A DNA stretch of 64,000 nucleotides. It comes from Candidatus Saccharimonadales bacterium. Lineage in GTDB: Bacteria > Patescibacteriota > Saccharimonadia > Saccharimonadales > UBA10212. The notes beneath the pieces are model-generated. The model saw only the letters and a program-made list of their open reading frames with translations, did not search any database and was not told where the DNA came from. The translations under genes were made by a program, and so were the position numbers. Shown one piece after another: positions 24,739 to 56,327 of this stretch. Positions within the stretch are counted from its first letter, which is position 1. Every line of letters begins with the position of its first letter. The DNA lies in NCBI GenBank assembly GCA_035758565.1, contig DASTXL010000001.1:203242-267241 (forward strand), written 5' to 3'.

Positions 24739-24759
24739 ATTTGTTATAATTAAGCCGAA

Positions 24760-34497: not shown

Positions 34498-34563
34498 TTT
34501 ACAACCTTAAAAAATATTATCCTGCATATGTTAACTGGTATTATGGAGGCAAAGGAGGCATTC

Positions 34564-36896: not shown

Positions 36897-36921
36897 AGGT
36901 GGGCATGCGGAAAGGATCAAA

Positions 36922-38838
36922 ATGCAGAACCCATCTGGCACATTTATAGTCATCGAGGGTGCCGACGGCTCCGGCAAATCCACTCAGTTCAATATCCTAA
37001 AAGCCCGTCTAGAGGCGATAGGGCACGAGGTAGATGTTTTTAAATTCCCGCAGCACCACGAACCATCGGGCTATTTCGTGCATAAGTACCTGAACGGCGG
37101 ATACGGCCCGATTGATAAAATAAGCCCCTACACAGCCTCTTTGTTTTATGCGCTAGACAGATTCGAAGGAGCGCCGGCCATACGTCAATCAATGCAAAGC
37201 GGACATATAGCGTTAAGCGACCGCTATGTGGGCGCCAACATGGCTCACCAGGGGTCCAAATTTACAAATCCGGCAGAACAAAGAGGTTTCTTTGTGTGGG
37301 AAGACGGCTTGGAGTTCGAACTCTTAAACATACCTCGACCAACTCTGACTATTTTTTTGCACGTTCCAGCCGAAATATCTCAAAGACTGTTGGCTGAACG
37401 CGCCAAAAAAACTGGCGTAGCCTTAGACGAGCACGAAAAAAATGTCGAGCACCTTAGAACAACCGTCTCAACATATGAAAAACTTTGCCAGTTGTTTCCG
37501 AACGATTTTAAGTTGGTAGATTGCACCGAAAATGGCAAGCTGCTGAGCGTACCGCAAATCAACAATAAGATTTGGGATGTTGTTAAGCCTATTCTGCCCG
37601 ATAAGCCAAGCAAACCAGCTCACAGCGTAACGGTAAAACTCAACGAGACTGCTCAGTCTAAATCAGCGCCCAAGACCGATACGTCTGAGGTTCCAAAGAA
37701 GGCGGTCAAAGAAGCGGTAAGCACAAAATTAAGCCTGGCGGCCATATTAGAGGCTCGCCTGGCCGGATTAGACATTCAGCCTGAGCTAGATTGGTCAAAA
37801 GCCGGCTACGAGTACTTTAAACCACAGGATTTGCCTAAGAAAACAGCAGCTAAGTACGAGCAGTTTATGGAAGGTTTTGTGGTGTTTCACCGGGCCATGA
37901 AAGGCAAACTCAAAAAAACCGGTGCTAGCGAGGCTTTGCTCTATGACGCCTTGCCGCTAGCGGCGCAATTCGAAGTTAAGGTCCCTTTGCCAGAGAATGA
38001 ACAAGGCCTGTTAGAACAGTTTTCTGGTAGTCAAAATGTGGAGCTGCGCCAACTTGCAGGCCAGCTAAACGGCAATTCTAAGAGTAAAGCCAGCGTCCGC
38101 GACTCTAATCCGCCAGAATCTATCGATAAAATCCTTGCCCGAATCGCCGGTGAACATTTGCCGCAAGCTTTGGCACAACAACCTGAGACAGTAGAGCTGG
38201 TAGAAGCCCAGCCACGCAATGAATTTAAGGTTTTGGCCGATGTTTTATACCCGTATAGTAACTTGCCCAAACTAGACCTAGAGGCCGAGATAGACCAGTG
38301 GGGCTACCAGCAAAAAACAAAGGCCTTAGAAACCGCGCTAAAAAACTCGCCGTCAGAGGTAATGCCCAAACTTCAGTATCGGTTTGACCTAACGCTTGAC
38401 TACCGGCTCTTAAGTCACGTGGTTGGCCTGGTTAAAGATATTAAGCTACAGCCGGCCACGCCACGCTATGGCTACGACGTTCCTCACGCGGTTGACGAAG
38501 CCGGCATAACAGAAGAGTATTTAGAGTGTTTTGACAAAAGCCTGGAGCTATTTAGCACCTTGCAAGCCGCTAGCCGTGACGACTTGGCTGTTTATGCCAC
38601 CTTAACCGGGCACGAGAACCGCTGCCACGTTACTTGCAGCTTGGCGGACCTAAAGACCATTAAAGATAAAAGTCTGTCTAGCGAACTTAACCAACTGATT
38701 GATCAATTGCTAGAAAAGATAAGCGAACACCACCCAATAGCTGCCGCCAGCCTGGGTGAACAATTGTCGGAGGAAGCGCCAAAGTCAGCACGCAAAAAAC
38801 GCCCTCGCCGCCGGGGCGGCAAATCCAAGAAGTCCTAA
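36922..38838 (+). CDS. tmk: Thymidylate kinase fused to a degenerate ThyX-like C-terminal domain
   Basis: The N-terminus has FIVIEGADGSGKSTQ and DRY (Tmk). The C-terminal ~200 aa (PRYGYDVPHAVDEAGITEEYLECF...YATLTGHENRC) parallel thyX residues AYGYEVPELVREAGLEQDFHKCF...YATLFGHRMRY but lack RHR. The tail is basic. Confidence 0.65.
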   Translation: MQNPSGTFIVIEGADGSGKSTQFNILKARLEAIGHEVDVFKFPQHHEPSGYFVHKYLNGGYGPIDKISPYTASLFYALDRFEGAPAIRQSMQSGHIALSDRYVGANMAHQGSKFTNPAEQRGFFVWEDGLEFELLNIPRPTLTIFLHVPAEISQRLLAERAKKTGVALDEHEKNVEHLRTTVSTYEKLCQLFPNDFKLVDCTENGKLLSVPQINNKIWDVVKPILPDKPSKPAHSVTVKLNETAQSKSAPKTDTSEVPKKAVKEAVSTKLSLAAILEARLAGLDIQPELDWSKAGYEYFKPQDLPKKTAAKYEQFMEGFVVFHRAMKGKLKKTGASEALLYDALPLAAQFEVKVPLPENEQGLLEQFSGSQNVELRQLAGQLNGNSKSKASVRDSNPPESIDKILARIAGEHLPQALAQQPETVELVEAQPRNEFKVLADVLYPYSNLPKLDLEAEIDQWGYQQKTKALETALKNSPSEVMPKLQYRFDLTLDYRLLSHVVGLVKDIKLQPATPRYGYDVPHAVDEAGITEEYLECFDKSLELFSTLQAASRDDLAVYATLTGHENRCHVTCSLADLKTIKDKSLSSELNQLIDQLLEKISEHHPIAAASLGEQLSEEAPKSARKKRPRRRGGKSKKS

Positions 38839-38865
38839 AGTGGCCCTTAGTGTTACGATAGAGCT

Positions 38866-39084
38866 ATGCAAAAAGTAGCTACTCGAGTATTTATTGGCGC
38901 GTCGATCGTTTTTGGTATTCTGGGCGTCATCCAGGTTATAACAATGCCAGACAATGACAACGATGCGTCAGATTTTAACAAGATAATCGTGCGGCTTCTA
39001 ATGGCAACCGTCTTTATCGTCTTGCCTTCATTCGCATTAAGCATTGCCGGCAAGTATTTAAACGATAGTTCCAGAGGTCGATAG
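38866..39084 (+). CDS. Small two-TM membrane protein
   Basis: 72-aa ORF with two hydrophobic helices. Confidence 0.4.
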   Translation: MQKVATRVFIGASIVFGILGVIQVITMPDNDNDASDFNKIIVRLLMATVFIVLPSFALSIAGKYLNDSSRGR

Positions 39085-39092
39085 GCAAGAAT

Positions 39093-39674
39093 ATGGGAAA
39101 GCTAATATATTTATTCACCACATCGCTGGACGGCTACGTCGCCGATAAAAATGGCGATTTTAGTTGGTCGAAACCAACCGAGGAGGTCCACTTTTTTGTC
39201 AACGACCAATTGCGTAACGTCGGCACGATTCTAATGGGTCGCAATTTGTACGAGACCTTAAAAGCTTGGGACGACATTCCTACTAAAGGGGTAGGCGGCA
39301 TCATGGACGGCCCAAGTCCAGCCATGAATGATTATTCTAAGATATGGCACGCCGCTAATAAGGTAGTTTATTCTTCTTCGCTTTCTGAGCTCGCGATAGA
39401 CAACGCGAAGATTGAGCGGTCATTTGATCCTGAAGCAGTCAAAAAGCAAGTGGCCGAATCGGCTCATGATTTTGATATCGGCGGTCCGCATCTGGCCGCC
39501 CAGGCCATCAAGGCTGATATTATCGACGAATACCACCAAATTATCGCTCCGCTAATCCTTGGCGAAGGTAATTTCTGGCTGCCCGGCGGGAACCGCAACA
39601 AGCTGGAGCTGGTAGATATGCGCAAGTTTGAAAACGGCTTCGTGCACCTGCATTATAGAAAGGCTGAAGAATGA
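39093..39674 (+). CDS. RibD C-terminal domain / dihydrofolate reductase-family protein
   Basis: TSLDGYVADKNGDFSW and ILMGRNLYE motifs are typical of RibD_C proteins. Confidence 0.6.
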   Translation: MGKLIYLFTTSLDGYVADKNGDFSWSKPTEEVHFFVNDQLRNVGTILMGRNLYETLKAWDDIPTKGVGGIMDGPSPAMNDYSKIWHAANKVVYSSSLSELAIDNAKIERSFDPEAVKKQVAESAHDFDIGGPHLAAQAIKADIIDEYHQIIAPLILGEGNFWLPGGNRNKLELVDMRKFENGFVHLHYRKAEE

Positions 39675-40231
39675 AGAAATTAATCATGTGGAATTTGGTC
39701 ACGCTCGATGGGTTTTTTGAGGGCGAGAAGCCGTGGGATTTATCTTTCCACGGCCTGGTTTTCGATAAAGAGCTAGAGGATTTTACGATCAAGCAGCTAG
39801 ATTCAGCCGACGCAGTTATTTATGGCGAGAATACATACAAAGGCATGGCCGAATACTGGACCGACCCCGACCAAGTAGACGATATTAAGACCGAACCTAT
39901 AAATAAAATTAAAAAATATGTTTGTTCGCCTACACTTAAGACTGCCGATTGGCAAAATACCACGGTTATTAAAGACGCCGTGAGCGAGATACCCAAATTG
40001 AAGCAGGAAGGCGACGGCAATCTGTTCGTTTTTGGCAGCGCCATCTTGAGCGAATCGCTTACGCGCGCGAACCTGTTCGATGAATACCGCTTGTGCGTAG
40101 TGCCGGTGTTCTTGGGCAAGGGCAGGCGGCTGTTCAACGACGGCCTGCCGTATCAAAAATTAAAACTACTAAAATCTCAACCCCTACAATCCGGCGCCAT
40201 CATCCTTACATACGCTCCAAGCTCAAGTTAG
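39671..40231 (+). CDS. RibD C-terminal domain / dihydrofolate reductase-family protein (paralog)
   Basis: VTLDGFFEG, VIYGENTY and LFVFGSAILS motifs. Overlaps the upstream paralog by 4 nt. Confidence 0.55.
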   Translation: MKKLIMWNLVTLDGFFEGEKPWDLSFHGLVFDKELEDFTIKQLDSADAVIYGENTYKGMAEYWTDPDQVDDIKTEPINKIKKYVCSPTLKTADWQNTTVIKDAVSEIPKLKQEGDGNLFVFGSAILSESLTRANLFDEYRLCVVPVFLGKGRRLFNDGLPYQKLKLLKSQPLQSGAIILTYAPSSS

Positions 40232-40262
40232 CGGGAGACCCAAAAACCCAGTTTGATATAGT
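40231..40262 (+). promoter_or_regulatory. Island cassette repeat R1 (GC box - A tract - extended -10)
   Basis: GCGGGAGACCCAAAAACCCAGTTTGATATAGT. Six nt separate the -10 box from the ATG at 40269. Confidence 0.6.
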
Positions 40263-40268
40263 GAGCCT

Positions 40269-40838
40269 ATGCGAACTCGAATAATTCTTCATGGCGGCAA
40301 CTCCGATAGAAGCACCGAAAAGAACGCCAAGTTCTTTAAAGAAATTGTCGATGGCGTGGGAACTAATACGGTAAAAGTCTTATGTGTCTATTTTGCCCGT
40401 CCGGAACACCGCTGGGATGATTCGTACGAAGAAGATAAATATATTTTCCAAAGAATAGATACCGACAAAGATGTAGAAACCGAATTAGCTACTTATGATT
40501 CATTCGTAGACCAAATAGCCGCTGCGGATATTGTGTTTATAAATGGCGGCCATAGAGGGCACTTAAAAGAAACTCTGCTTTCGATCGGTGTGGAGCGCTT
40601 TAGACAGATGGTTGAAGGCAAAACTCTAGTGGGCATAAGCGCCGGAGCGAACATTCTTTCAAAATATTATTATTCGTCGGTAGCTCAAGACATCCGAGAG
40701 GGAACTAACTTCTTGAACATAAAGCTGTTTACTCACTTCTCAGAAGATGAACCTGAACAGCTCAATGATTTAAAGTCGTATGCCGAAGATCTGCCTGTAG
40801 TCACGATTCCCGAAGAAGAGTATTTAGTTATCGAGTAG
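40269..40838 (+). CDS. Peptidase S51 (dipeptidase E-like) family protein
   Basis: ILHGGN, FINGGH and GISAGAN motifs. Confidence 0.5.
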   Translation: MRTRIILHGGNSDRSTEKNAKFFKEIVDGVGTNTVKVLCVYFARPEHRWDDSYEEDKYIFQRIDTDKDVETELATYDSFVDQIAAADIVFINGGHRGHLKETLLSIGVERFRQMVEGKTLVGISAGANILSKYYYSSVAQDIREGTNFLNIKLFTHFSEDEPEQLNDLKSYAEDLPVVTIPEEEYLVIE

Positions 40839-40855
40839 GCACCCGCAGAAAATCA

Positions 40856-40893
40856 GGCGGAGCGGACCCAAAAAATCCCCAGTTTGTTATAAT
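40856..40893 (+). promoter_or_regulatory. Island cassette repeat R2
   Basis: GGCGGAGCGGACCCAAAAAATCCCCAGTTTGTTATAAT. Six nt separate the -10 box from the ATG at 40900. Confidence 0.65.
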
Positions 40894-40899
40894 TCATTC

Positions 40900-41145
40900 A
40901 TGGCAGAGGATGAATTTACTAAACTTTTCAAATACATCACCGAACGTTTCGACAAGGTAGATGCAGAGCTTGAGAAAAAAGCCGATGCAGCTCTGGTAGA
41001 AAAAGTTCTGGCTTTGATTGATAAGATTGCCAAACAACAGGAAATCAACGACGAAGAACGCCTGGTCATGGGCCACCAGTTGGACAGAATGGACCGCTGG
41101 GTCCATGAGCTGGCCGACAAGATTGGTTATAAACTTTCAGTTTAA
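40900..41145 (+). CDS. Small coiled-coil hypothetical protein
   Basis: 81-aa ORF with a leaderless-type start. Confidence 0.45.
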   Translation: MAEDEFTKLFKYITERFDKVDAELEKKADAALVEKVLALIDKIAKQQEINDEERLVMGHQLDRMDRWVHELADKIGYKLSV

Positions 41146-41158
41146 GACTGTAGTGATT

Positions 41159-41287
41159 ATGAAGCTCAAAGGAAAAGTAGCAAAAATTGGCAAAGCGACG
41201 GTTGTTGTATTCGATAAAGCCATGTTCGAAAAGTCAGGTTTGAAGGTTGGTGATTTGGTAAGCCTAGCTGGTATCAAAAAGCTTTAA
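41159..41287 (+). CDS. Very small AbrB/MazE-like (SpoVT-AbrB fold) candidate
   Basis: 42 aa: MKLKGKVAKIGKATVVVFDKAMFEKSGLKVGDLVSLAGIKKL. The call is a weak pattern match only. Confidence 0.25.
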   Translation: MKLKGKVAKIGKATVVVFDKAMFEKSGLKVGDLVSLAGIKKL

Positions 41288-41296
41288 CGGCTAACT

Positions 41297-41557
41297 GCTC
41301 CATTTGTTCTGGCAAAACGGAATCTAAAAATCTCGAACCAAAGCTACGTTCTTTACCAAAGAACCAAATGTTTTTCATCCATTTCTTGGTCGCGAAGAAA
41401 CGGAAGCCAAAGAACGACAGGCAACTCACTCCCGCAGGACTGTTTCGTACGTTCATGAAAAGGGAAGACTGCGGAACTCGTGCTTTGGGCACTCAAACAG
41501 TCCTCGCTTCAGACTTTTCATAAACTTCTTTAGCAGCTCTGGTTCGCTCGAGCCTGG
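41297..41557 (+). repeat. Repeat family copy A (modules 1+2)
   Basis: Aligns with 43389-43604 (same strand) and with the reverse complement of 47505-47732. Ends in GGTTCGCTCGAGCCTGG. Confidence 0.8.
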
Positions 41558-41570
41558 GGTTTTTGAGCCG

Positions 41571-41609
41571 GGCGGGGCGGACCCAAAAAATCCCAAGATT
41601 GCTTATGCT
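41571..41609 (+). promoter_or_regulatory. Island cassette repeat R3 (divergent -10 part)
   Basis: GGCGGGGCGGACCCAAAAAATCCCAAGATTGCTTATGCT. The downstream gene has its own GGAGGAAGC SD. Confidence 0.5.
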
Positions 41610-41656
41610 TGCAATGTTGAATCGTTAAGAATATATTTCTGTTAATCGGAGGAAGC

Positions 41657-42016
41657 ATGGCAGAGAGAACACATCCAAATGAAAAGTACGTAGAAAATCT
41701 ATTTAACGACGCTATTAATTGGCTAGGTGTAGTTGGAGAATATGACCATAATATTCCAAAGGAAGATAATCCCTACAACCGGTCGGTAGATAAGGCCCTA
41801 AACTTCTTAGCTAGCCAAATCGCCGAAAGTTCAATAGATATAGCCATGCTACTATCTACCTTAGAACGACAAGCACAGACAGTAGTTGCCGAATCTGATG
41901 ACCTCTATGGGGACTTGGACAGAGTTATTAGGACCAATCAAATGTATGTGCTAGCCAGGACGATGAACGCATATTCTTCGCCAGAACGTATTGTTCACAT
42001 CCCGCTGGAAGTGTAA
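41657..42016 (+). CDS. Hypothetical protein
   Basis: 119-aa ORF with a CGGAGGAAGC SD. Confidence 0.45.
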   Translation: MAERTHPNEKYVENLFNDAINWLGVVGEYDHNIPKEDNPYNRSVDKALNFLASQIAESSIDIAMLLSTLERQAQTVVAESDDLYGDLDRVIRTNQMYVLARTMNAYSSPERIVHIPLEV

Positions 42017-42027
42017 ACCCTCAGCCG

Positions 42028-42065
42028 CTGAGGCAAACCCAAAAAATCCCAAGTTTTGATATAAT
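42028..42065 (+). promoter_or_regulatory. Island cassette repeat R4
   Basis: GCTGAGGCAAACCCAAAAAATCCCAAGTTTTGATATAAT. Six nt separate the -10 box from the ATG at 42072. Confidence 0.6.
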
Positions 42066-42071
42066 ATTCTT

Positions 42072-42167
42072 ATGAATAAAGTAGCAACAAAGCCGAACGT
42101 TCAGGTCTGGACAAAGAACTTCATCAAGAAGTACTCTCCGGCTTTAAAAGAGCTGTCCAAAAAATAA
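42072..42167 (+). CDS. 31-aa candidate antitoxin partner of Doc
   Basis: MNKVATKPNVQVWTKNFIKKYSPALKELSKK. It ends 6 nt before the doc start, in the usual upstream position of an antitoxin. Confidence 0.3.
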   Translation: MNKVATKPNVQVWTKNFIKKYSPALKELSKK

Positions 42168-42173
42168 AAATCT

Positions 42174-42560
42174 ATGAACCAAATATCGGTCGACGATGTT
42201 GTTTACATCCACGACCATATTATTGCCGCTTCTGGCGGTCTTACGGGACTAAGGGATAAAGGACAGCTCAAAGCTTGCCTAGCCAGGCCTTTTCAAAGCG
42301 CTTTTGGTGAAGAAACATATCCCGATCTGTTCGAGAAAGCAGCCGCCTTACTGGACTGCATTGCCAATGATCATCCGTTTGCAGATGGCAATAAACGAAC
42401 AGCCATGGCGTCGGCAGTTATCTTTCTGGTGTCGTACGGTATATCTACCGACTTCACGAACCAAGAATACGAAGATTTCATGCTCCACGTCGTTAATGAT
42501 AAGCCGAGCATCCAAGAGATTGCCAACTGGCTTCGCCAACACGGCGACATAATTATTTAA
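42174..42560 (+). CDS. doc: Fic/Doc-family toxin (death-on-curing type)
   Basis: HPFADGNKRTA matches the Doc variant of the Fic motif, and the 128-aa size fits. Confidence 0.8.
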   Translation: MNQISVDDVVYIHDHIIAASGGLTGLRDKGQLKACLARPFQSAFGEETYPDLFEKAAALLDCIANDHPFADGNKRTAMASAVIFLVSYGISTDFTNQEYEDFMLHVVNDKPSIQEIANWLRQHGDIII

Positions 42561-42566
42561 AACACA

Positions 42567-42603
42567 GGCGGGGCGGACCCAAAAAATCCCAGTTTGATAT
42601 AGT
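42567..42603 (+). promoter_or_regulatory. Island cassette repeat R5
   Basis: GGCGGGGCGGACCCAAAAAATCCCAGTTTGATATAGT. Seven nt separate it from the ATG at 42610. Confidence 0.65.
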
Positions 42604-42609
42604 TTTTAT

Positions 42610-43374
42610 ATGTACAAGTCATTTACAGCAGATGATTATCGCAAACACTTAAAGCTGCCGGCCGATTATGTTGTTGATGGTTTTTTAATTTACGGCACGT
42701 TTAGAAAGTTCCCATACGAACAGTTGGAGGATTCACTCAAAAAACAAAGGATAGAATATCAAACCGCAAAAATTGGCGACGAATATTTTGACCCAGTGCT
42801 TACGTTTAGGGTAGGCAATAATAATTATTGGTTCACTATTGCTTACGGCGGAACAATGCTAAGCGAATATCTACATTTAGCCTGCACGTTTGGCAGCAAG
42901 AAGAACCTTTTGATAGGTAGTTGCGGCGGGCTCAAAAAAGGCGCGTCGAGTTTGGACATCATAGTTCCGGACTGGAGCTATGGCGACGAAAGTTCCGCGA
43001 GGTCCTATCAGAACGAAAAAGATGGTAAGCAGTATTCGGACACTTCGATTTCTGATAGGTTGGCAGATAAACTAGCCGATAAATACAAGGTGCACCGTGG
43101 TCCAACCGTCACTCATCAAGCAATGCTTGGTGAAACCTGGGAAGACATTGAGCGCTGGGCACAACAGGGCTATATTGGCGTAGAGATGGAAGCATCTACT
43201 GTTTTTGCGGTATCGAATCATTTTAAAGTACCCTCGGCTGCCATTCTTCACATTGGCGATAACCTTATAGAAGAAGAAACGGTTATGGACATAAATTACG
43301 AAACCAACCGCGATTTACACAGGCAAGTTTCTCAAGACATCTTCGATGCAGCCGTTGAAGAATTACTTAAATAG
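42610..43374 (+). CDS. Nucleoside phosphorylase-superfamily (PNP_UDP_1-like) protein
   Basis: GSCGGL and GVEMEAS motifs. Confidence 0.5.
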   Translation: MYKSFTADDYRKHLKLPADYVVDGFLIYGTFRKFPYEQLEDSLKKQRIEYQTAKIGDEYFDPVLTFRVGNNNYWFTIAYGGTMLSEYLHLACTFGSKKNLLIGSCGGLKKGASSLDIIVPDWSYGDESSARSYQNEKDGKQYSDTSISDRLADKLADKYKVHRGPTVTHQAMLGETWEDIERWAQQGYIGVEMEASTVFAVSNHFKVPSAAILHIGDNLIEEETVMDINYETNRDLHRQVSQDIFDAAVEELLK

Positions 43375-43388
43375 CTTTTAGACGCAAA

Positions 43389-43604
43389 CTCAAAAATCCA
43401 TGTTCTTTAGCAAAGAACCAAATGTTTTCAACCATTTGATTCGGCAAACGGTTGACCAAAGCCGACAGGCATTCGCTCCGGCAGGGCTGGTTCGTACGTT
43501 TTTAAAAAGGGAAGACTGCGAAACTCGCGGATTGGCGCTTCAAACAGTCCTCGCTTCAGGCTTTTCATAAACTTCTCACCAATCTCTGGTTCGCTCGAGC
43601 CTGG
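43389..43604 (+). repeat. Repeat family copy B
   Basis: Shares GTTCTTTagcAAAGAACCAAATG...AAAAGGGAAGACTGCGaAACTCG...CAAACAGTCCTCGCTTCAG...GGTTCGCTCGAGCCTGG with copy A. Confidence 0.8.
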
Positions 43605-43641
43605 ATTTGATTAACGTAAAATTAAAGTCCCTATATTTGCT

Positions 43642-44550
43642 ATGATGAATCTCATGAAAACGGACTATTCTCTTGAATGGTTTCAGGAGAGAGCATTTAA
43701 ATCACTTAAGAAAATCAAAGAAGGCCAGTGGGACTATTCAGATCCATCATTGATCTACGTGCCTGACGAGGAAGAAAAATACGAAACAGTTCAGCAGAGC
43801 GGAAGTCGATACCACGAACTTATCACGGAACCAGAAAAGAAGTATCTGGAACAAATTGCACCAATAGTAGCAAATGCGCTGCCAAATGATTTTGAATATA
43901 TCGATCTCGGTCCTGGCAATGCACATAAAGAACAATATATTTTTGACGCGCTCAAAGCCCTGGGAAAAAAATTTAAGTACATCCCTGTAGACATAGATAA
44001 AAAATATCTTGATCTTGCTGCTCGGCATGCAGAGCGACAAGGTATCGAGGTTTCAGATGCTCAGCTACTCTTCGAAGAATTACCGTACAGATTGCCAGCA
44101 AGTCATACCCCGCGCTTTGTTTCCATCGGAATGACGTTTACGAACTATGCGCCTGACACGATCTTGCCGCTGTTGAAGAAGATTGCCGGTCAATCCGGAT
44201 ACGTCTTGACTAATTCACAGATCAGGGAACGGCTAGATATGGCCGCGGTCACGGATGTTTATCAGGATGAGGTTTATGCGTTACTGGAGACAAAGATAAG
44301 GTTGCTAGGACTTCGTCCCTCAGATCTTGAAAAGCAATGGTGCGACGACGGCATCAGAGCCTGGTTTAAGATAAAGAATGTCAGCCAAGATCTCAGCAAG
44401 CTCGGCGTCAGAGCTGGTGATGAGTTCTTAGCCTATTATTTCTTTAGGCCGACTATAAAATCGCTTTCAGAAAGCTTCAGCCGACACTTCGACAGCTTCA
44501 AACTGCTCGATATTAACGCCGCCTTTGTGGCCGGCCTACTCTTTACCTAA
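43642..44550 (+). CDS. SAM-dependent methyltransferase (EgtD/Methyltransf_33-like)
   Basis: YIDLGPGNAHKEQYIFDAL resembles the SAM-binding motif I of EgtD-type enzymes. This is the only supporting motif. Confidence 0.35.
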   Translation: MMNLMKTDYSLEWFQERAFKSLKKIKEGQWDYSDPSLIYVPDEEEKYETVQQSGSRYHELITEPEKKYLEQIAPIVANALPNDFEYIDLGPGNAHKEQYIFDALKALGKKFKYIPVDIDKKYLDLAARHAERQGIEVSDAQLLFEELPYRLPASHTPRFVSIGMTFTNYAPDTILPLLKKIAGQSGYVLTNSQIRERLDMAAVTDVYQDEVYALLETKIRLLGLRPSDLEKQWCDDGIRAWFKIKNVSQDLSKLGVRAGDEFLAYYFFRPTIKSLSESFSRHFDSFKLLDINAAFVAGLLFT

Positions 44551-44554
44551 AACC

Positions 44555-44596
44555 GGGCGGGGCAAACCCAAAAAATCCTCTTATTGTTAATATAGT
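44555..44596 (+). promoter_or_regulatory. Island cassette repeat R6
   Basis: GGGCGGGGCAAACCCAAAAAATCCTCTTATTGTTAATATAGT, followed by a second TGTTATAAT. Confidence 0.5.
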
Positions 44597-44671
44597 CATA
44601 TTATGTTATAATTTACTTATCTTTGGAAGCAATTCCTCAGATTGTAATGTCATCCTATTCTAGGAGGCATC

Positions 44672-45133
44672 ATGGACGATCAGACGGTGAGCCCCGAGGC
44701 TCGCACCGCTGCCAAGTGGTGGGCAGACCAGCTGCGTGGGCCGGCGAGGATGGACAACGGATCGCTTGAGTACTCCATGGAGACCGGCGACCCGAACCAC
44801 TTCGACCAGGCCATCACGACGATGGGTCTCGCAGGGATACTCAACGAGCGCGAACGCTCCGGCCTCAGCGACGAGCAGATCTCCGTGTTCGAAGAAGCGC
44901 TCGCAAGGCGCGTCCAGGAGCGGCTGCAGCAGTCCGGTGAGTTCGGCGTCACGATCGACGTCGACTACCACCCGGACTACCTGCTCGTCGACAGCGCGGA
45001 CGAGGCCGGCATTCGTGTCGGCATGACGCTCTTCCCCTGGAAGACGACCATGTGGATCGAGACCGGAAGCGTCAGGGTGAGCTGCGGCTACCGCGGCCCG
45101 ACCGAGGACCTGTCGATCGCCACCGCGTCATAG
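44672..45133 (+). CDS. High-GC hypothetical protein (horizontally acquired, actinobacterial-type codon usage)
   Basis: 153-aa ORF with a TAGGAGG SD. Codon third positions are almost all G/C (GAC, GAG, CTC, ACG, ATC), unlike neighbouring genes. A GC-rich terminator hairpin follows (GGGCGGGAGC...GCTCCCGCCC). Confidence 0.65.
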   Translation: MDDQTVSPEARTAAKWWADQLRGPARMDNGSLEYSMETGDPNHFDQAITTMGLAGILNERERSGLSDEQISVFEEALARRVQERLQQSGEFGVTIDVDYHPDYLLVDSADEAGIRVGMTLFPWKTTMWIETGSVRVSCGYRGPTEDLSIATAS

Positions 45134-45254
45134 GAGAAACAGCCCTCATTGCCGTTTCCACGGGCGGGAGCCGTAGAGCTCCCGCCCCAGCGCCATGAAC
45201 GCTTCTGCATTTGCAGTCAAGCGCCTTGGCGCTTTTTTCGATTCTAAAATCATC

Positions 45255-45286
45255 GGGGCGGACCCAAAAAATCCTGGTCTGTATTC
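45255..45286 (+). promoter_or_regulatory. Island cassette repeat R7 (divergent 3' part)
   Basis: GGGGCGGACCCAAAAAATCCTGGTCTGTATTC. A GATATAAT box lies at 45301-45308. Confidence 0.5.
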
Positions 45287-45331
45287 TTCGCTAAAACGAA
45301 GATATAATTGCGGTAAGGATGGTCTAAGAGT

Positions 45332-46507
45332 ATGAGCCGAGAAAATAGAGTTTTTAAATTAACCTTTCTTGTCGTCGCCAAGGACTGGGACGAAGTAATT
45401 ACTGTCTTCAAAAAAGAATTAGGAATCACAAAAGTTAAAGAGGACATTGGTGACTACAAGATGGCGGGTCACTATATTGTTGGATTAGATTTATCTGATA
45501 GAGACCTAAGCGACGGTTTCTATGGAAAGATTCATGCAAGTTCAACAATAACTCTGTTAAGCGACAAGGCATCTGATGAGCGAGCACAAAAGATCCTGGA
45601 CCTCGCAAGACCAATTGAGCTAAAGCTTAGAGAGTTAATTATCTATGCTCACGAGCTAGTTGACGCGTACTTCGACATTATTCAACCTAAAAGTCCTGTG
45701 GCGAAGAGGTTTATGGGCTCTAAGCAATTAGTGGGCAAGGAAGTTTTAGATTCGGCCGTTTCATTTCTCGACCTAGGGGAAATTATAAAAGTTCTGGGAA
45801 GTGATGGGAATGAGGTCGACACAACCAGACCCACAGACGACATAGTTAAACTGCTAGAGGCAACTTCGAACTTTGAACAATTTAAGGAAAAATTGATTAA
45901 GAAGTTTAAGCGCCTAACGGTCTGGGATGTTATTGCGAAGACGGTTTTGCAACAACCGATTTCTTGGTTAAGTATCAAAGATGACTTAAACGAGCTAAAA
46001 AACATCCGTAATGTAGCCGCTCATTTTAGAATCGCAACGCCGGATAATCTTAAGAGAGCGACCGAATTGTCAGGAAGTTTACTACCCCAGCTATCGAGAA
46101 AGCCGGACCCGGACCGAAAAGCAATTGAGGAGATGGCTCAAACTTTTTCTGTGTGGGCTAAAGAATACGAGTTGTTCAAGGAAGTAAATAAAGCCGCACT
46201 TGATGCTATAAAGGTTAATAATAGTTTTCTTACGCAGGCCACTAAAGACATTTCAAACTCTTTCAGATCTGCAATCCCAGACATAAATTCTTCGATATCA
46301 AACTTTAATACAGTTTCAGGTTCGATATATCCAGATTCTTTATTGCGAAGTATGGCGTTTCCTGATATTTCGTCGATAAATCCAGGAGCGGGTTTGCATA
46401 AGGCTAGTCCTGATATCGGGAAATTCTTGGGCAGTGAATACGATAGCGACCAGGGTGACAGCGAAGATGAAGATAGCACTTCTATGGCGCCTGTTAAGAA
46501 AAAATAA
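45332..46507 (+). CDS. HEPN-domain protein (Rx4H; Swt1/Abi-like)
   Basis: LNELKNIRNVAAHFR contains the R-x4-H HEPN signature in the usual helical context. The C-terminus is low-complexity and acidic. Confidence 0.5.
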   Translation: MSRENRVFKLTFLVVAKDWDEVITVFKKELGITKVKEDIGDYKMAGHYIVGLDLSDRDLSDGFYGKIHASSTITLLSDKASDERAQKILDLARPIELKLRELIIYAHELVDAYFDIIQPKSPVAKRFMGSKQLVGKEVLDSAVSFLDLGEIIKVLGSDGNEVDTTRPTDDIVKLLEATSNFEQFKEKLIKKFKRLTVWDVIAKTVLQQPISWLSIKDDLNELKNIRNVAAHFRIATPDNLKRATELSGSLLPQLSRKPDPDRKAIEEMAQTFSVWAKEYELFKEVNKAALDAIKVNNSFLTQATKDISNSFRSAIPDINSSISNFNTVSGSIYPDSLLRSMAFPDISSINPGAGLHKASPDIGKFLGSEYDSDQGDSEDEDSTSMAPVKKK

Positions 46508-46514
46508 AGACATA

Positions 46515-47477
46515 ATGAAACTGCCAAACCGCGACAAAATCATCAACGAGCTTACTCGCCGCTATGAAGAAGTGCTTAGGAGATCTGAGAGCAGATTGAA
46601 GAATGACGAGGACGCACGTCAATTTATATCGCTGATCGCCCACTATATTAACTACATTAAGCAAGACGAACTCACAGAGGAAGCCATAACAAAATTATTT
46701 AAAAATAAAGAGGCACTCGCGAGTGATCAAGTTCTTATTGATGAGGCAGATAAAATCATAGTTCAGTTAAGAAAAGATCGTAATAAGGTTGTTAAATTTG
46801 CAGCCAAACAAGGTATTGATACTGGACCGTATCAATTTAATACTTCCAGCACGGCTCAACAGATTACGCTAGACAAGGAGGTCTCTTTTAACCTTAGCTT
46901 CTTGGACAATTTCCTCAAACTTCCCAGCGACCATCAAAGAGTCAGTGATTTACCAAATCAAATAGGTCATTTCCGCTCAATTATTTTTGCCACCACGCAA
47001 TTAGCGGGCGAGACAAGAGCACTCACAAAGTTAAAGTCTGACTATAGCGATATATCTAACGAGTTTGCAAAGAAGCTAAAGATGCAGGGCGTGTATTTAA
47101 ATTATCTACGGATTGAAGATTATCAAGCCCTAGAGGTTGTTTGGCGAGAGGTTTATCAAGAGAGCGATCATGATGAGCAATTTATATTTCACTTTATGTA
47201 CGGAGATTTGTTTGAAAAAAACCGAACTTTTTCTCCCGGTCAACAAAATGATGCAAATGAATTTGTATCAAAATATATGAGCCACCTACAACGCGTGCAT
47301 AACTACCTAATCGATGGACTTGAGAATGCGCCCTCTTCTGAAAAATTTGTTAAGTGGCTTGTAGAACATTTTGGCCCAACTTTAGCTTCAGTAATAATCA
47401 TCCTAGTAATATATGTAATTCTCCGTCATCTAGGTCTGAAGATAGACATAAACTCACTAAAGAATTGGGTCGGGTAA
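46515..47477 (+). CDS. Hypothetical protein with a C-terminal TM anchor
   Basis: The ATG at 46515 is 8 nt after the HEPN gene stop. The C-terminal helix is LASVIIILVIYVILRHLGL. Confidence 0.45.
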   Translation: MKLPNRDKIINELTRRYEEVLRRSESRLKNDEDARQFISLIAHYINYIKQDELTEEAITKLFKNKEALASDQVLIDEADKIIVQLRKDRNKVVKFAAKQGIDTGPYQFNTSSTAQQITLDKEVSFNLSFLDNFLKLPSDHQRVSDLPNQIGHFRSIIFATTQLAGETRALTKLKSDYSDISNEFAKKLKMQGVYLNYLRIEDYQALEVVWREVYQESDHDEQFIFHFMYGDLFEKNRTFSPGQQNDANEFVSKYMSHLQRVHNYLIDGLENAPSSEKFVKWLVEHFGPTLASVIIILVIYVILRHLGLKIDINSLKNWVG

Positions 47478-47504
47478 GTCGAACGTCGACTTGTTCCTGA
47501 TATT

Positions 47505-47732
47505 CCAGGCTCGAGAAAACAGAGAGAGTGAGGAGCGAGTTCAAAAGTCTGAACCGAGGACTGTTTGAGCGCCAAACGGCGAGTTCCGCAGGTTCACTTT
47601 TGGCGATTGTGCGAGCGACCATCTAGTTTTCGAATGCCTGCCGTTTCTTGGCTTCCGTTCTTTCGCGGCCAAAGAATGGAAGAAAACATTTGGTACTTTT
47701 CAAAAGTACATTCTTGCCAGAACAAAATGGAA
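47505..47732 (-). repeat. Repeat family copy C (inverted orientation)
   Basis: Its reverse complement aligns with copy A. On the plus strand the core 47506-47640 is closed by CAGGCTCGAGAAAAC...GTTTTCGAATGCCTG. Confidence 0.8.
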
Positions 47733-47761
47733 CAAAAAATAGTTAAGCGTACAATAAAGTT

Positions 47762-48025
47762 ATGGCCTACGAACCGGACGAGGAAGACCTTAAATGGATG
47801 AAAACTCGCAAAAGCGGGCATACGTACGCAGAGCGCGCTAAATGGCGTGAAGAATACGCCAAAACCCACCCCGCTAAAGAAATTGAGAGCCATGGCTGGC
47901 GAGACTTCTTTATAGGTTTAGCTATTATGATAATCATTATTTTGATAGCTTTTGCTCTGGGCGGTAACGACCCTACTACTGACGGAAATTGTAATCAAGC
48001 TAACTTTTCGGGTTTGGGCTGTTAA
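47762..48025 (+). CDS. Small membrane protein
   Basis: 87-aa ORF with one TM helix (FFIGLAIMIIIILIAFALGG). Confidence 0.4.
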   Translation: MAYEPDEEDLKWMKTRKSGHTYAERAKWREEYAKTHPAKEIESHGWRDFFIGLAIMIIIILIAFALGGNDPTTDGNCNQANFSGLGC

Positions 48026-48265
48026 TCTGTTACCGTGTCTTAATGGGAGATATGCCCGCTTAGACTGTTGCCTAACAGAGTTAATTTTGCTAATATATCC
48101 AGGAACTTGAGCCAAAGACAGCGACGGGGAAACCTTAATAAAGTCGCCTAGGAACAAGAAAGTCTTATAGATTTTTACGTTAGTCTTTTGGCCATAATAG
48201 GCCATTTTTTATAGCTCAAGACACCTTAACAAATTGGTCGATATTGTTAAACAAGGAGAAAACTC
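48026..48265 (+). promoter_or_regulatory. Long untranslated leader upstream of rplJ (candidate L10 autoregulatory leader)
   Basis: 240 nt without a credible ORF, ending in an AAGGAGAAAA SD. L10-leader regulation is known in many bacteria, but no structure was verified here. Confidence 0.25.
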
Positions 48266-48790
48266 ATGGCTTTATCCAGAGAGAAAAAAGAAGAAGCCGT
48301 TAGTGAAGTTACGCAACTCCTGAAAGATTCCAAATTGACGGTCGTAGCCAAATACCAGGGCACGAGCGTTAAGTCTATGCAGGAGCTTCGCCGCGCTTCG
48401 CGCGATAACGGCACCCGAGTCCTCGTCGTCAAGAACCGCTTATTCAAAAAAGCGGCCGCTGGTGACGAACGATTTAAAGACACTGATCTAAGCGAACTGA
48501 ACGGACAGCTGATGTACGCCTTCAACAATGAAGACGAAGTCGCACCCGCCCAGAGCCTGGCCAATTTTGCCAAAAATGAGCCGCAGATCGAATTTGTCGC
48601 CGCCTTGACCCCAGAAGGTAAACTTCTACCTGCCGAGGAGGTCAAAGTCTTGGCCAGCTTGCCAAGCAAGAACGAGCTTATCGCTCAGACTGTCGCAATG
48701 CTTCTATCGCCCGTTAACGACGTTACAAACGCGCTTTCCGGCAACCTGTACGCTCTATTAGACGGCGTGGAAGCAAAGGCTACAGCGTAA
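48266..48790 (+). CDS. rplJ: 50S ribosomal protein uL10
   Basis: MALSREKKEEAV start and LRRASRDNGTRVLVVKN motif, upstream of rplL. Confidence 0.9.
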   Translation: MALSREKKEEAVSEVTQLLKDSKLTVVAKYQGTSVKSMQELRRASRDNGTRVLVVKNRLFKKAAAGDERFKDTDLSELNGQLMYAFNNEDEVAPAQSLANFAKNEPQIEFVAALTPEGKLLPAEEVKVLASLPSKNELIAQTVAMLLSPVNDVTNALSGNLYALLDGVEAKATA

Positions 48791-48816
48791 ATATTAATTA
48801 GGAAGGAATTGAAATC

Positions 48817-49200
48817 ATGGCAGATTTAAAGAATTTAGCTAAAGAACTCACAGGCTTAACTGTCCTGGAAGTCAACGAACTTAAGACCATCCTTAAGGAT
48901 GAATACGGCATCGAGCCGGCCGCCGCAGCTGTAGCTGTTGCCGGCCCAGCCGCTGGTGGCGCTGAAGGCGGAGCCGCCACGGAAGAGAAGAGCGAATACG
49001 ACGTCATGCTAAAAGACGCCGGTGCTCAGAAGGTTGCAGTCATCAAGGCTGTTAAAGATATCACCGGCCTAGGCCTGGGCGAGGCTAAGGCTATCGTAGA
49101 CGGCGCTCCTAAGGCTGTTGTCGAGAAAGTTAGCAAAGAAGACGCTGAAAACGCCAAGAAGGCTTTAGAAGAAGCTGGCGCTACAGTCGAACTCGCCTAA
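48817..49200 (+). CDS. rplL: 50S ribosomal protein bL12
   Basis: Ala-rich hinge, and the C-terminal domain [27 protein letters not shown]...[10 protein letters not shown]. Confidence 0.95.
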
Positions 49201-49416
49201 CAATAACGCAACGCCTAGCCCTGCCAACTGGCTTTAGCCAGCCGCACCGGCTAGGCTTCTGGCGTATTACGGCGTCAGAAGCTTACGGTACTCCTTAGCA
49301 GTATTTCGATACAGCTAGAGTCCGTTCCTCAGCTTCTTTCTTGTACTACGCTCAGATGCGTGAATTGTTTGATTCAAAGAGAAAAGGAAAAGTTTTAGAG
49401 AGACTTTTGCAAAGAA

Positions 49417-49441
49417 CTGCCCCGAAAAAGGGCAGTTTTTT
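49417..49441 (+). terminator. Rho-independent terminator downstream of rplL
   Basis: CTGCCC-cgaaaaa-GGGCAG followed by TTTTTT. Confidence 0.6.
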
Positions 49442-49462
49442 GTTGGGTTAAGTTAATAGTAA

Positions 49463-49552
49463 AGGGAAAGGTAGTAGCTCCGGTTCGGCTTTGGCCGAAT
49501 CCGGATTTACTCCGGAAGGAGCGTTGAAGGAAAACCGCAGGTTGTCCTTCAA
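49463..49552 (+). repeat. Structured repeat, copy 8 (three-way variant; orphan, outside any operon junction)
   Basis: AGGGAAAGGTAGTAGC box. CTCC...GGAG closes GGTTCGGC/GCCGAATC and CGGA/TCCG. Followed by hairpin TTGAAGGAaAACC-gca-GGTTgTCCTTCAA. It has no start codon, and stop codons occur in the frames used by the other copies. Confidence 0.75.
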
Positions 49553-49667
49553 ATTGGTTTATCCACAGAAAAACGCTATATTTTTGACACCATATATAAT
49601 AGTGTGTTAGGTTTGGGGTGAATATAGGGGATTAAATAAAAAACCTATAGGGAGATTTGGAAAACAA

Positions 49668-50180
49668 ATGACAGACATACCTGAAAAGCAGATAAAACGG
49701 CTTCGCAGCTTAATTGCAGAGGCTGAGACGGCTTTGGCCGCCACTAAAGAATTGTTAGTGAGCTTGGTTGGCGACGACCCAGTTTTAACCGAGAAACTTG
49801 TAGATAAGCAGCTGGGCAAAGTTATAGAAGGCGTCTTCGACGGCCAGAACATGGTCGGCAGCGACGGCAAAACTTACCCAGTACCGGCTAACTACGCCTC
49901 TAAATCTAAGTTGGTGCAGGGCGATATTCTTAAGCTGACAATCGCCGATGACGGCTCATTCCTTTATAAGCAAATCGGGCCAATTCCACGCAAGCAGGTA
50001 GTTGGCGTATTGCAGCAAAAAGACGGCCACTACTTTGTAGAAGTTGATGGCAAACAATACCGCGTACTGTTGGCCAGCGTAACCTACTTTAAGGCTAAGC
50101 CTGGCGACCAAGTCAGCGTGAATGTTCCAGAAGATTCTACCGTCGACGCCGAGTGGGCCGCCCTAGAAGCCGCCCTGTAA
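49668..50180 (+). CDS. Hypothetical protein
   Basis: 170-aa ORF following a GGGAGA sequence. No family recognised. Confidence 0.5.
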   Translation: MTDIPEKQIKRLRSLIAEAETALAATKELLVSLVGDDPVLTEKLVDKQLGKVIEGVFDGQNMVGSDGKTYPVPANYASKSKLVQGDILKLTIADDGSFLYKQIGPIPRKQVVGVLQQKDGHYFVEVDGKQYRVLLASVTYFKAKPGDQVSVNVPEDSTVDAEWAALEAAL

Positions 50181-56194: not shown

Positions 56195-56327
56195 GCACTC
56201 GAGAAAACAGAGGGAGCGAGTAGCGAGGCAAAAGCAGTATCGAGGACTTGTCTGACGAACAAAGTGAGGAGTCCCGCAGATTCACTTTTGACGAGCAACC
56301 GAGCGACCATCTAGTTTTCGAATGTGC
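56195..56327 (-). repeat. Repeat family copy D (module 2 only)
   Basis: GCACTCGAGAAAACAGAGGGAGCGAG...CTAGTTTTCGAATGTGC parallels 47506-47640, with compensatory closing pairs (GCAC/GTGC compared with AGGC/GCCT). Confidence 0.7.

Follow-up and report, generated by a model that had tools for sequence, protein, structure and literature searches.

Orphaned copies of the tmk 3' end, joined to predicted promoters, at the gene-cassette junctions of a tmk-rplJ hotspot in Saccharimonadales

A 64-kb stretch of contig DASTXL010000001.1 (hereafter the window) from an uncultured Candidatus Saccharimonadales bacterium, a member of the candidate phyla radiation (CPR), carries between tmk and rplJ an array of eight small gene cassettes, each with one unit of a short repeat. 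The order of genes is secE, nusG, rplK, rplA, a ThyX-fusion gene, dCTP deaminase, tmk, a 72-aa open reading frame (ORF) and two RibD_C genes, followed by the cassette region, an 87-aa ORF, the L10 leader and rplJ-rplL; features described below are on the + strand unless stated otherwise. The tmk-fusion gene (36922-38838; 638 aa; Pfam PF02223) encodes an N-terminal thymidylate kinase domain followed by about 430 aa. The tmk-proximal block (38866-40231), with the tmk end on its left side and the repeat unit c0 on its right, is composed of the 72-aa membrane ORF (38866-39084) and the DHFR-like genes RibD_C-1 (39093-39674) and RibD_C-2 (39671-40231), both assigned by Pfam. At the distal side, the 87-aa transmembrane ORF (47762-48025), with a predicted leaderless promoter of its own (TACAAT plus 6 nt), is the last one before the right border (48094-48790), which is formed by the L10 leader (48094-48218; Rfam RF00557, 44.1 bits against a gathering score of 44) and rplJ (48266-48790), the latter identified through L10 homologs. 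A second assembly (Logan SRR25158471, L007) is 100% identical across 36554-49870 of the window, and therefore the array is neither a mis-join nor an artefact of the metagenome-assembled genome.

The 24-mer GGCGGGGCGGACCCAAAAAATCCC, with up to three mismatches allowed, was found at 40856, 41571, 42567, 44556 and 45252, all on the + strand, while no match was obtained in 100 shuffles. The 14-nt core RACCCAAAAAATCC is present without mismatch at six sites including 42036, again all on the + strand, and the copies identified by the 24-mer and the core span 40856-45275. The window contains a total of six strong copies, one degenerate copy and an eighth copy, all in the + orientation within 5 kb. 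Unit c0 (40232-40262; CGGGAGACCCAAAAACCCAGTTTGATATAGT) has a degenerate left half (CGGGAGACCCAAAAA-CCCAGTTTGATATAGT) but an intact extended -10 element 6 nt before the ATG of the peptidase S51 gene; it forms the border between the conserved RibD_C block and the variable cassettes, and is real, with an orthologous copy at the equivalent place in the related locus L110. Unit c1 (40856-40893) consists of GGCGGAGCGGACCCAAAAAATCCC plus CAGTTTGTTATAAT, unit c3 (42027-42065) of GCTGAGGCAAACCCAAAAAATCCC plus AAGTTTTGATATAAT, the GCAAACCC type being found also in relatives, and unit c4 (42567-42603) of GGCGGGGCGGACCCAAAAAATCCC plus AGTTTGATATAGT; each of these ends 6 nt before an ATG, that for c3 being at 42072. 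Only the left half is retained in c2 (41571-41594; GGCGGGGCGGACCCAAAAAATCCC), which precedes a 119-aa ORF, and in c6 (45252-45275; ATCGGGGCGGACCCAAAAAATCCT), the right half being diverged in both; a TATAAT is located at 45303-45308 downstream of c6. In c5 (44556-44612), the left half GGCGGGGCAAACCCAAAAAATCCT, which reads RGKPKKS in the frame of tmk, is followed by TGTTAATAT and then by a second extended -10 element, TGTTATAAT.

All seven copies listed in the original prediction, including the degenerate one at 40231, were thus found to be real, but the eighth (43381-43616), upstream of the methyltransferase gene, had escaped it. The two halves of this unit are separated by a 205-nt repeat, termed B: the left half (43381-43399; GACGCAAACTCAAAAATCC) is followed by the copy B2 (43400-43604) and then by a remnant of the right half (43605-43616; ATTTGATTAACG). 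The methyltransferase gene had been described as following a B copy and having a different promoter, but B is in fact inserted inside a unit, of which the ACTCAAAAATCC variant is uninterrupted in L110 at 7654. The left halves of c2 and c4 are identical over 24-25 nt, and c1 differs from them at one base. The left edges of the units agree within about 3-6 nt, five of the junctions lie 5-17 nt downstream of a stop codon, and the similarity often ends after ...AATCC (c2, c5 and c6). A further candidate, a degenerate unit just upstream of the first B copy (GGAATCTAAAAATCTC), was rejected, since it aligned better to an internal segment of B; a possible ninth unit before the 87-aa ORF (GGAACAAAAAATAG) was too weak for a decision.

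The unit is neither a palindrome nor a clear direct repeat. Modules of the Xer/dif type (pdif, IMEX) carry a 28-bp site with inverted 11-bp arms and a 6-bp spacer, and this symmetry was not found in the units. With no dyad symmetry, and with occurrences in the window restricted to the island and the tmk stop, readings as a dif/Xer site, a DNA-uptake sequence or a Chi-like sequence were set aside, as was that of a terminator, the unit having no hairpin followed by a T-run. Single-stranded DNA folds of the units (six of the + strand and two of the - strand) gave no common hairpin, with z values between -0.06 and +1.6 except for c3, for which the hairpin is located upstream of the unit. Scans for the exact unit pattern through GTDB species representatives, JGI metagenomes and IMG/VR gave only single matches at the chance level with no flanking similarity, indicating that the motif is lineage-specific and not present on known viral contigs. 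Using the Rfam covariance models for 40000-48300, only the L10 leader was recovered; the units and the B repeat gave no match at the gathering score or at E ≤ 1, and the sole other listing at E ≤ 1 was a chance-level fragment of the CPEB3 ribozyme (E = 0.89; 17.6 bits against a gathering score of 35). In the whole window, Rfam recovered this leader and tRNAs, and nothing else.

The left half of the unit is colinear with the last 8 or so codons of the tmk-fusion gene, an origin that had been missed before. The tmk 3' end in the window (38806-38838, the last 33 nt or so) terminates in ...CGCCGCCGGGGCGGCAAATCCAAGAAGTCCTAA and encodes RRRGGKSKKS*, and would be the attB-like template of the repeat. 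A position weight matrix (PWM) was built from the six strong copies. At a cutoff of 10 bits, only one match was detected in the window outside the array, and this match (GGGGCGGCAAATCCAAGAAGTCCTAA, 15.2 bits) ends at the tmk stop. The best or only match in relatives is likewise the tmk stop, with 29.3 bits in L043 (GCCGCAGCAAACCCAAAAAATCCTAG; peptide RSKPKKS*), 22.4 in L112, 20.0 in L113, 13.4 in L050, 11.1 in L110 and 10.8 in L111. When the 441 ends of ORFs of at least 100 aa were ranked for the 12 loci compared (the window and contigs of relatives fetched via L10 and tmk homologs), the top seven PWM scores were all tmk ends, as were eight of the top 10. In the tmk frame, the unit reads CGG GGC AAA/GGA CCC AAA AAA TCC, corresponding to R-G-K/G-P-K-K-S, of which R-G-K-P-K-K-S is encoded by c5 and c3 and R-G-G-P-K-K-S by c1, c2, c4 and c6; the in-frame stop is retained in internal copies of relatives (TCC TAA at L110 7019 and TCC TGA at L111 4489). 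The closest tmk homologs have the C-terminus (R)RG(G/N)KPKKS*, and 35 of the 120 best homologs end in [KRNT][PS]KK with no more than a single residue (S, P, Q, T or N) behind it. Upon alignment of eight tmk 3' regions from 8 genomes, only the last 33 nt or so (CGCCGCCGCGGCGGCAAACCCAAGAAATCCTAA) were found to be conserved, while neither the basic linker upstream nor the DNA downstream showed conservation. The left piece of the unit (about 24-29 nt) is read here as an orphaned copy of this tmk 3' end.

The RRRGG codons at the tmk end form a GC-rich palindrome (GCCGCCGCGGCGGC; GCCGCC-GG-GGCGGC in the window) within a fast-evolving basic tail. This palindrome was seen at 38806-38838 of the window and at the tmk 3' ends of L043, L050 and L110-L113, and the left edge of the orphan copies lies near its centre. 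In addition, the window and L112 share the identical tail RGGKSKKS despite an overall identity of 43% between the two tmk proteins.

The right half of the unit is of a different nature. Units c0, c1, c3 and c4 continue into (C)AGTTTGWTATART, a predicted extended -10 element with 6 nt between it and the ATG; elements at this distance were confirmed at 40254, 40885, 42057 and 42595; the distance of 6-7 nt originally proposed for four copies is 6 nt at all of them. The element is of the type TGnTATART, and the remaining cassettes have -10 candidates of their own; the leaderless start of the methyltransferase is likely the ATG at 43654, behind TGCTATGAT. Core genes of the window show a similar arrangement, TGnTAnnnT plus 6-9 nt plus a start codon, at 24742, 28315, 29781, 54057 and 14150 (- strand), none of them with the GC-box/A6 part that makes up the left half. 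Extended -10 elements with a start codon 6-9 nt behind them were noted in all at 14150 (- strand), 24742, 26182, 28315, 29781, 38851, 43638 and 54057, apart from those in the units. As judged from the sequence, the layout of a leaderless sigma-70 promoter with an extended -10 is present at c0, c1, c3 and c4 and in at least eight core-gene examples in the window, and its recurrence at core genes suggests that leaderless mRNAs are common in this organism. The right piece of the unit would therefore be an extended -10 promoter, from which transcription may start at or next to the ATG to give a leaderless mRNA. These results agree with the earlier proposal of a cassette array in which the left part of the repeat is specific to the island and the right part is an extended -10 of a general kind, only the latter being shared with other leaderless promoters of the window. 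In at least three genomes, units have their -10 at a fixed distance of about 8 nt from the A-run, whereas the next -10 after real tmk ends is 18-40 nt away; because this distance varies, promoter geometry does not explain the match between the motif and tmk.

The interval between tmk and rplJ was then compared among relatives. The left border is tmk and the right border is the L10 leader/rplJ in the window, L043, L050, L056, L061, L062 and L112, as for a core-genome hotspot, while the cargo in between differs in every relative examined and is often defence-like. This cargo includes a G5-domain protein and two unknowns in L043; a 676-aa HATPase_c_3 protein in L046; a 106-aa gene and an AAA_21/AAA_15 ATPase in L050; the same 106-aa gene followed by 252-aa and 420-aa (weak HEPN) proteins in L056; DUF1828/DUF1829 and DUF6978 proteins, encoded on the minus strand, in L061; DNA methylase, SNF2 helicase, NOV_C and Vsr in L062; and two RibD_C genes, a 365-aa minus-strand gene and N6_Mtase in L112. 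In L110, tmk is followed by two RibD_C genes, a glyoxalase-family (VOC) protein and an OmdA-domain protein, and in L111 by minus-strand genes for a VOC protein, a 178-aa protein and an Ltp lipoprotein, and then by a 2-hydroxyacid dehydrogenase. The defence-like group contains, at L111 3774-4433 (- strand), an Ltp-type surface lipoprotein with three repeats, a family which we take to be involved in superinfection exclusion by prophages; at L056 8344-9606, a protein with a weak HEPN_Cthe2314 match; at L062 2610-9255, the DNA methylase with SNF2 helicase, NOV_C and Vsr; and at L112 8840-11209, an N6_Mtase/Methylase_S fusion. The tmk-rplJ interval acts as a clade-wide defence hotspot.

It had been proposed that the island splits the normally adjacent rplA and rplJ. 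The split is real, but in all the relatives examined these two genes are separated by genes for dTMP synthesis that end in tmk; the separation is ancestral to the clade, and the variable part starts only after tmk/RibD_C. The RibD_C pair is common to the window and L110, and RibD_C-1 is present also in L112 (tblastn, with the upstream regions of RibD1 aligned), where the second RibD_C gene differs from RibD_C-2 of the window. With the exception of RibD_C, none of the cassettes of the window was found in the 11 related loci. Between the window and L110, the identity is 77% for RibD_C-1 and for RibD_C-2, compared with 68% for L1, 57% for DCD and 50% for tmk; as judged from these identities, there are hints that the RibD_C pair has been shared more recently than the core genes.

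Further tmk-end-like copies were identified at break points of cassettes or synteny in five relatives (L110, L111, L112, L062 and L056), always on the + strand. L110 carries the c0 ortholog at 6544, directly after RibD_C-2 with a different gene downstream, a copy of 26 bits at 7019 before the OmdA gene, and the ACTCAAAAATCC variant before the next gene; L111 carries a copy of 26.7 bits at 4489 before the dehydrogenase gene and weaker copies at 3737, between two minus-strand genes, and at 5501, after the dehydrogenase gene. The copy in L112 (7447) lies after the second RibD_C gene and is followed by a minus-strand gene, that in L062 (1349) is placed between two minus-strand genes, and that in L056 (7332) is located exactly where the colinearity between L056 and L050 ends. 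No promoter role is possible for the copies between or before minus-strand genes in L062, L111 and L112. When the core ACCCAAAAAATCC was searched with up to two errors, 25 matches were on the + strand and none on the - strand inside the hotspots (45 kb), while elsewhere 18 were found in 370 kb of strand sequence. Units thus coincide with cassette and synteny junctions in several genomes in a strict orientation, while the cargo turns over. The possibility that the motif travels together with its cargo was rejected: only RibD_C is shared with the 11 related loci, and the closest homolog of the PNP-like gene of the window (77% identity, L108) is located in another genomic context without the unit, indicating that the unit belongs to the locus and not to the cargo.

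A direct duplication flanks the RibD_C pair in L110 (5331-5386 and 6544-6584). It is made up of a unit together with the initial 10 nt of the VOC ORF behind it, with a perfect 21-mer (ATAGTTAAAATATGCAGCCTC) within about 55 nt of imperfect similarity. The duplication is the trace of a single insertion, and its left copy has come to encode the C-terminus of a 128-aa ORF.

The cargo of the window itself is heterogeneous. Cassette 1 (40269-40838) encodes a peptidase S51/PepE-like protein (PF03575, E = 4e-12; NF003642 below cut-off). Cassette 2 (40900-41287) contains an 81-aa coiled-coil-like ORF (40900-41145) and a 42-aa ORF (41159-41287), with no family match, and library searches gave no support to the AbrB-like assignment proposed earlier. 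Cassette 3 (41657-42016) is the hypothetical 119-aa gene with a Shine-Dalgarno-like leader. Cassette 4 (42072-42560) is composed of a 31-aa ORF (42072-42167; putative antitoxin) and the toxin Doc (42174-42560; PF02661, E = 4e-19; TIGR01550, 77 bits against a cut-off of 38.65). A PNP/UDP-family phosphorylase-like protein (PF01048) is encoded by cassette 5 (42610-43374), and an EgtD-like S-adenosylmethionine (SAM) methyltransferase (PF10017; TIGR03438 below cut-off) by cassette 6 (43642-44550). The foreign 153-aa gene of cassette 7 (44672-45240; 65% G+C) has its own Shine-Dalgarno sequence and a terminator (45219-45240). Its coding part (44672-45133) stands out at 65% G+C within a genome of 48% G+C, with native AT-rich DNA on both sides, and the only homologs detected in annotated collections are distant ones, hypothetical proteins of Clostridium plasmids and Faecalibacterium phages at about 31-33% identity. 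Cassette 8 (45332-47477) encodes a 391-aa protein with an Rx4H motif (RNVAAH) and a 320-aa protein with a C-terminal transmembrane segment. The S51, Doc, PNP-like and EgtD-like assignments of the original prediction were thus confirmed, while its HEPN assignment of the 391-aa protein corresponds to a weak match (HEPN_RiboL-PSP, E = 0.021, below cut-off); library scans gave no further family match for cassette 8, and a PADLOC match of the 391-aa protein to HamA (E = 0.009) was not credible. Only the Doc gene fits the defence-candidate models of PADLOC. The G+C content of the cassettes is 39-44% or 65%, against 47-53% for core genes, which marks their composition as foreign.

The B repeat is about 205 nt, or 270 nt in its long form, and is present in four copies in the window. 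B1 (41288-41557, core 41348-41557; +) is a rod-forming non-coding sequence 13 nt upstream of c2, B2 (+) is the copy inside the eighth unit, B3 (47505-47711; - strand) is inverted at the distal end of the array, and the fourth copy (56198-56324; - strand) separates recR from a DHH-family gene, the distance between these two genes being 37 nt in L043. A diverged copy was found in another genome (L113 10922-11133; +). A coding function of B was rejected because the copies differ by 1-nt indels. The 5' hairpin GTTCTTTACCAAAGAAC shows a compensatory change in B3, the closing helix CAGGC...GCCTG is replaced by CAGCAC...GTGCTG in the fourth copy, and the overall fold is rod-like. No match was obtained in Rfam or IMG/VR, and a lone pattern match in L114, inside a high-GC phage gene, is due to chance. 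B is inserted at an equivalent point in the two genomes, after the left half at 43400 in the window and directly after the real tmk end in L113, and the right half of the unit resumes behind it as ATTTGATTAACG in the window and as GTATTTGATATCTGTATAAT in L113. B is probably an element like the miniature inverted-repeat transposable elements (MITE) or an RNA of unknown kind.

These observations led us to consider that the units are att-like sequences, each an orphaned tmk 3' end plus a promoter, that were left at the junctions by serial insertion at one hotspot, a reading to which we assign about an even chance. Direct repeats resembling the 3' end of a target gene flank the inserts, as in tandem accretion at gene 3' ends, and what is new in this locus is judged to be a variant form of that process. 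On this reading of serial insertion, the tmk-rplJ interval would be a conserved insertion hotspot in the Saccharimonadales clade, at which small co-oriented cassettes would be inserted one after another into a tmk-end-like site, each insertion leaving one more orphan copy. The unit would be the joining sequence for new DNA, with the exchange point near the end of the left piece (...AATCC|), and would also supply a promoter to each captured gene; a recombinase, if there is a dedicated one, would act in trans from outside the window. The agreement of the left edges, the stop of similarity at AATCC, the junctions 5-17 nt past stop codons and the insertion point of B together argue for joining at a defined position close to where the left half ends, from which we infer both the role of the unit as the site of joining and the position of the exchange. 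The alternative of a recombination site, raised in the original prediction, has gained from the homology to the tmk 3' end, from the recurrence at break points, from the count of 25 + strand against no - strand matches and from the sites without a + strand gene. That prediction took the presence of the full repeat at many housekeeping genes, or an identical island in all relatives, as signs against a cassette system; the motif is absent from the housekeeping promoters of the window, and the island content differs in every relative.

Several points weigh against serial insertion at a specific site. No integrase or recombinase domain was detected in the scanned hotspot ORFs of the window and relatives or in the larger unassigned ORFs of the window; in particular, neither the window nor the hotspots of L043, L046, L056, L062, L111 and L112 yielded a site-specific integrase as would serve accretion. 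The multi-gene hotspots of L043, L050, L046 and L061 have no internal units. The GGCGGGGCGGACCC variant common in the window was not seen as a real tmk end among the 120 homologs. The duplication in L110 extends past the unit and looks like a product of illegitimate or unequal recombination rather than of exchange at a fixed core. The RibD_C block next to tmk is shared while the distal cassettes are variable, and this counts against the reading because insertion at the tmk stop predicts the reverse pattern, unless c0 or any other unit can be used. Finally, the motif scan of the source genome covered the 64-kb window only.

The units might instead have been formed by natural transformation without a dedicated recombinase, an origin that we hold to be possible but only tentatively. 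One end of an incoming fragment would then be joined by homology, in the rplJ/L10 leader or in tmk, and the other illegitimately at microhomology, a step that the GC-rich palindrome of the tmk tail (GCCGCCGCGGCGGC) would promote. Donor fragments would carry their own tmk 3' end and the downstream promoter, the orphan would be kept for its needed promoter half, and deletion bias would trim the rest. Since Saccharibacteria are naturally competent (PMC10633639; a passage of PMC10187176 also refers to their natural competence), this explanation is a serious one, and it accommodates several of the points above: the negative search for a recombinase in nine hotspots, the exchange in relatives of everything between the conserved flanks with no internal units, the position of the left orphan edge near the palindrome centre, the duplication around the RibD_C pair of L110, which takes in a unit and 10 nt of the ORF behind it, and the sharing of tmk-proximal genes with variable distal ones, as expected from anchoring at the rplJ side. 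Illegitimate joins, however, predict remnants of variable length and occasional truncated genes, and neither the close agreement of the left edges nor the regular position of five junctions behind stop codons conforms to this. The left half, functionless in such a process, is the best-conserved part of the unit, as seen in c2 and c4; the -10 keeps its fixed spacing to the A-run, different from that at real tmk ends; and B entered at the equivalent point of the unit in two genomes. Serial insertion and transformation agree in that the unit is a tmk-derived junction scar supplying a promoter.

A shared operator or promoter module, in which the GC-box/A6 part is a regulator site or an unusual -35/spacer that co-regulates the island genes, is unlikely. 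The likeness to tmk would then stem from a first regulated promoter that overlapped the tmk end, the module having spread by reuse. The left half lies at about -43 to -21 from the predicted start, a typical operator position, with a fixed spacing to the extended -10 in c0, c1, c3, c4, L111 4489 and L056 7332; all the strong copies of the window are upstream of + strand genes; and the left half is conserved beyond what is expected of a neutral relic. No minus-strand copy is present in the hotspots, however, despite minus-strand cargo in L111, L112, L061 and L062, and this cargo without the motif weakens the idea of a shared operator as first proposed, although the + strand copies are still compatible with it. 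In addition, three copies (L112 7447, L062 1349 and L111 3737) have no + strand gene following, the orphans are codon-colinear with the tmk tail and some even have its in-frame stop (L110 7019, TAA; L111 4489, TGA), the motif is neither a palindrome nor a clear direct repeat, and this reading offers no route by which a 37-nt module could land precisely before unrelated genes.

A true integron, or a cluster of attC sites lacking integron-integrases (CALIN), recombined by IntI, is suggested by the co-oriented array of compact, mostly single-gene cassettes with a conserved repeat at every junction, but is hardly credible, since no recombinase and no attC-type hairpin were found: the units have neither a hairpin nor R''/L''-L'/R' symmetry, fold energies do not differ from those of shuffles in seven of eight tests, no IntI or Phage_integrase match was obtained in the island ORFs or in the scanned larger ORFs of the 64-kb window, each cassette appears to have its own 5' promoter instead of a common Pc, and the repeat is derived from the 3' end of a host gene. 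The integron-like logic originally suggested thus holds as an analogy only, and the absence of an integrase and of attC-type palindromes, noted at the same time, agrees with the domain scans and the folding.

Outside the hotspot, the dTMP cluster from rplA to tmk shows non-orthologous replacement. The ThyX of the window (34261-36198; 645 aa) has its Thy1 domain at residues 405-597 behind a long fused N-terminal region, whereas a ThyA-type thymidylate synthase is present instead in L043 (3810-4727), L050 (4102-5004)/L056, L110 (1914-2831) and L112, and none was seen between DCD and tmk in L061 and L113. DHFR_1 and RibD_C genes are variably present in the dTMP cluster of relatives. A second, ordinary insertion point is occupied by a thymidine kinase gene (50263-50907) between a conserved 170-aa ORF and dnaX, which are adjacent in L043, L050 and L056; this gene has a Shine-Dalgarno-type start and a terminator-like hairpin upstream, and carries no unit.

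Among known systems, the array is similar to the tandem accretion of integrative elements and cis-mobilizable elements (CIME) at the 3' end of a housekeeping gene, as described for ICESt1/ICESt3-related elements at fda of Streptococcus thermophilus (PMC5704250). In both, direct repeats of the target-gene 3' end separate co-oriented inserts, the inserts lack an integrase of their own, and the target gene stays intact. The cassettes here, however, are of 0.5-2.2 kb and often hold one gene, and are thus far smaller than decayed islands, which reach many kb; an integrase could not be seen anywhere nearby; a predicted leaderless promoter, which would drive the next cassette, is joined to each orphan; and neither a tmk-fusion target nor a CPR host phylum has been described for the process. 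With integrons and CALIN, the array shares a compact and co-oriented structure, mostly single-gene cassettes of heterogeneous origin, a site at every junction and accessory or defence-like cargo, but it differs in the lack of IntI and attC structure and in that the host-gene-derived site is located 5' of the gene together with a promoter. Most cassettes of integrons, by contrast, have no promoter of their own and are transcribed from Pc. The minimal mobile elements (MME) of Neisseria are alternative cassettes between conserved genes that are exchanged by transformation and homologous recombination. The conserved flanks tmk and rplJ with differing cargo, the lack of mobility genes and the competent host group are similar to MME, the likeness being at the level of replacement of the whole interval; MME, however, are not known to have internal junction repeats or to stack cassettes with orphan gene ends. 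Finally, the toxin-antitoxin, HEPN-like, restriction-modification, AAA_21/OLD-like, Ltp and SNF2/methylase genes between two core genes are as in defence islands or core-genome hotspots, but several cargo genes here are metabolic (S51, PNP-like, methyltransferase, RibD_C and glyoxalase-family), and a regular junction element has not been described for such islands.

CPR bacteria have tiny, streamlined genomes with few recognisable mobile elements. A literature search for hotspots or cassettes in Saccharibacteria gave nothing relevant, and no description of such arrays in CPR bacteria was found. For the question of how these bacteria gain accessory and defence genes, the tmk-rplJ locus and its junction element give a testable, sequence-defined handle in metagenomes and in the few transformable Saccharibacteria. 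It is conceivable, though doubtful at present, that the Saccharimonadales clade owns a gene-capture platform of an undescribed kind, in which the last 30 nt or so of tmk serve as the chromosomal attachment site, an enzyme acting in trans or a competence-linked route stacks the cassettes, the junction brings a leaderless promoter, and B is a non-autonomous element at the exchange point. Such a platform would follow an integron-like logic with unrelated parts. If the units are true recombination sites, cassettes would be captured by non-integron parts with a built-in leaderless promoter; if illegitimate recombination driven by transformation has left them behind as scars, the process and the joining site that it prefers would be on record here in a natural setting, which is rare. 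The unit may also serve as a marker for accessory gene arrays in Saccharimonadales bins and is, for genetic work in this phylum, a candidate portable promoter or neutral landing site.

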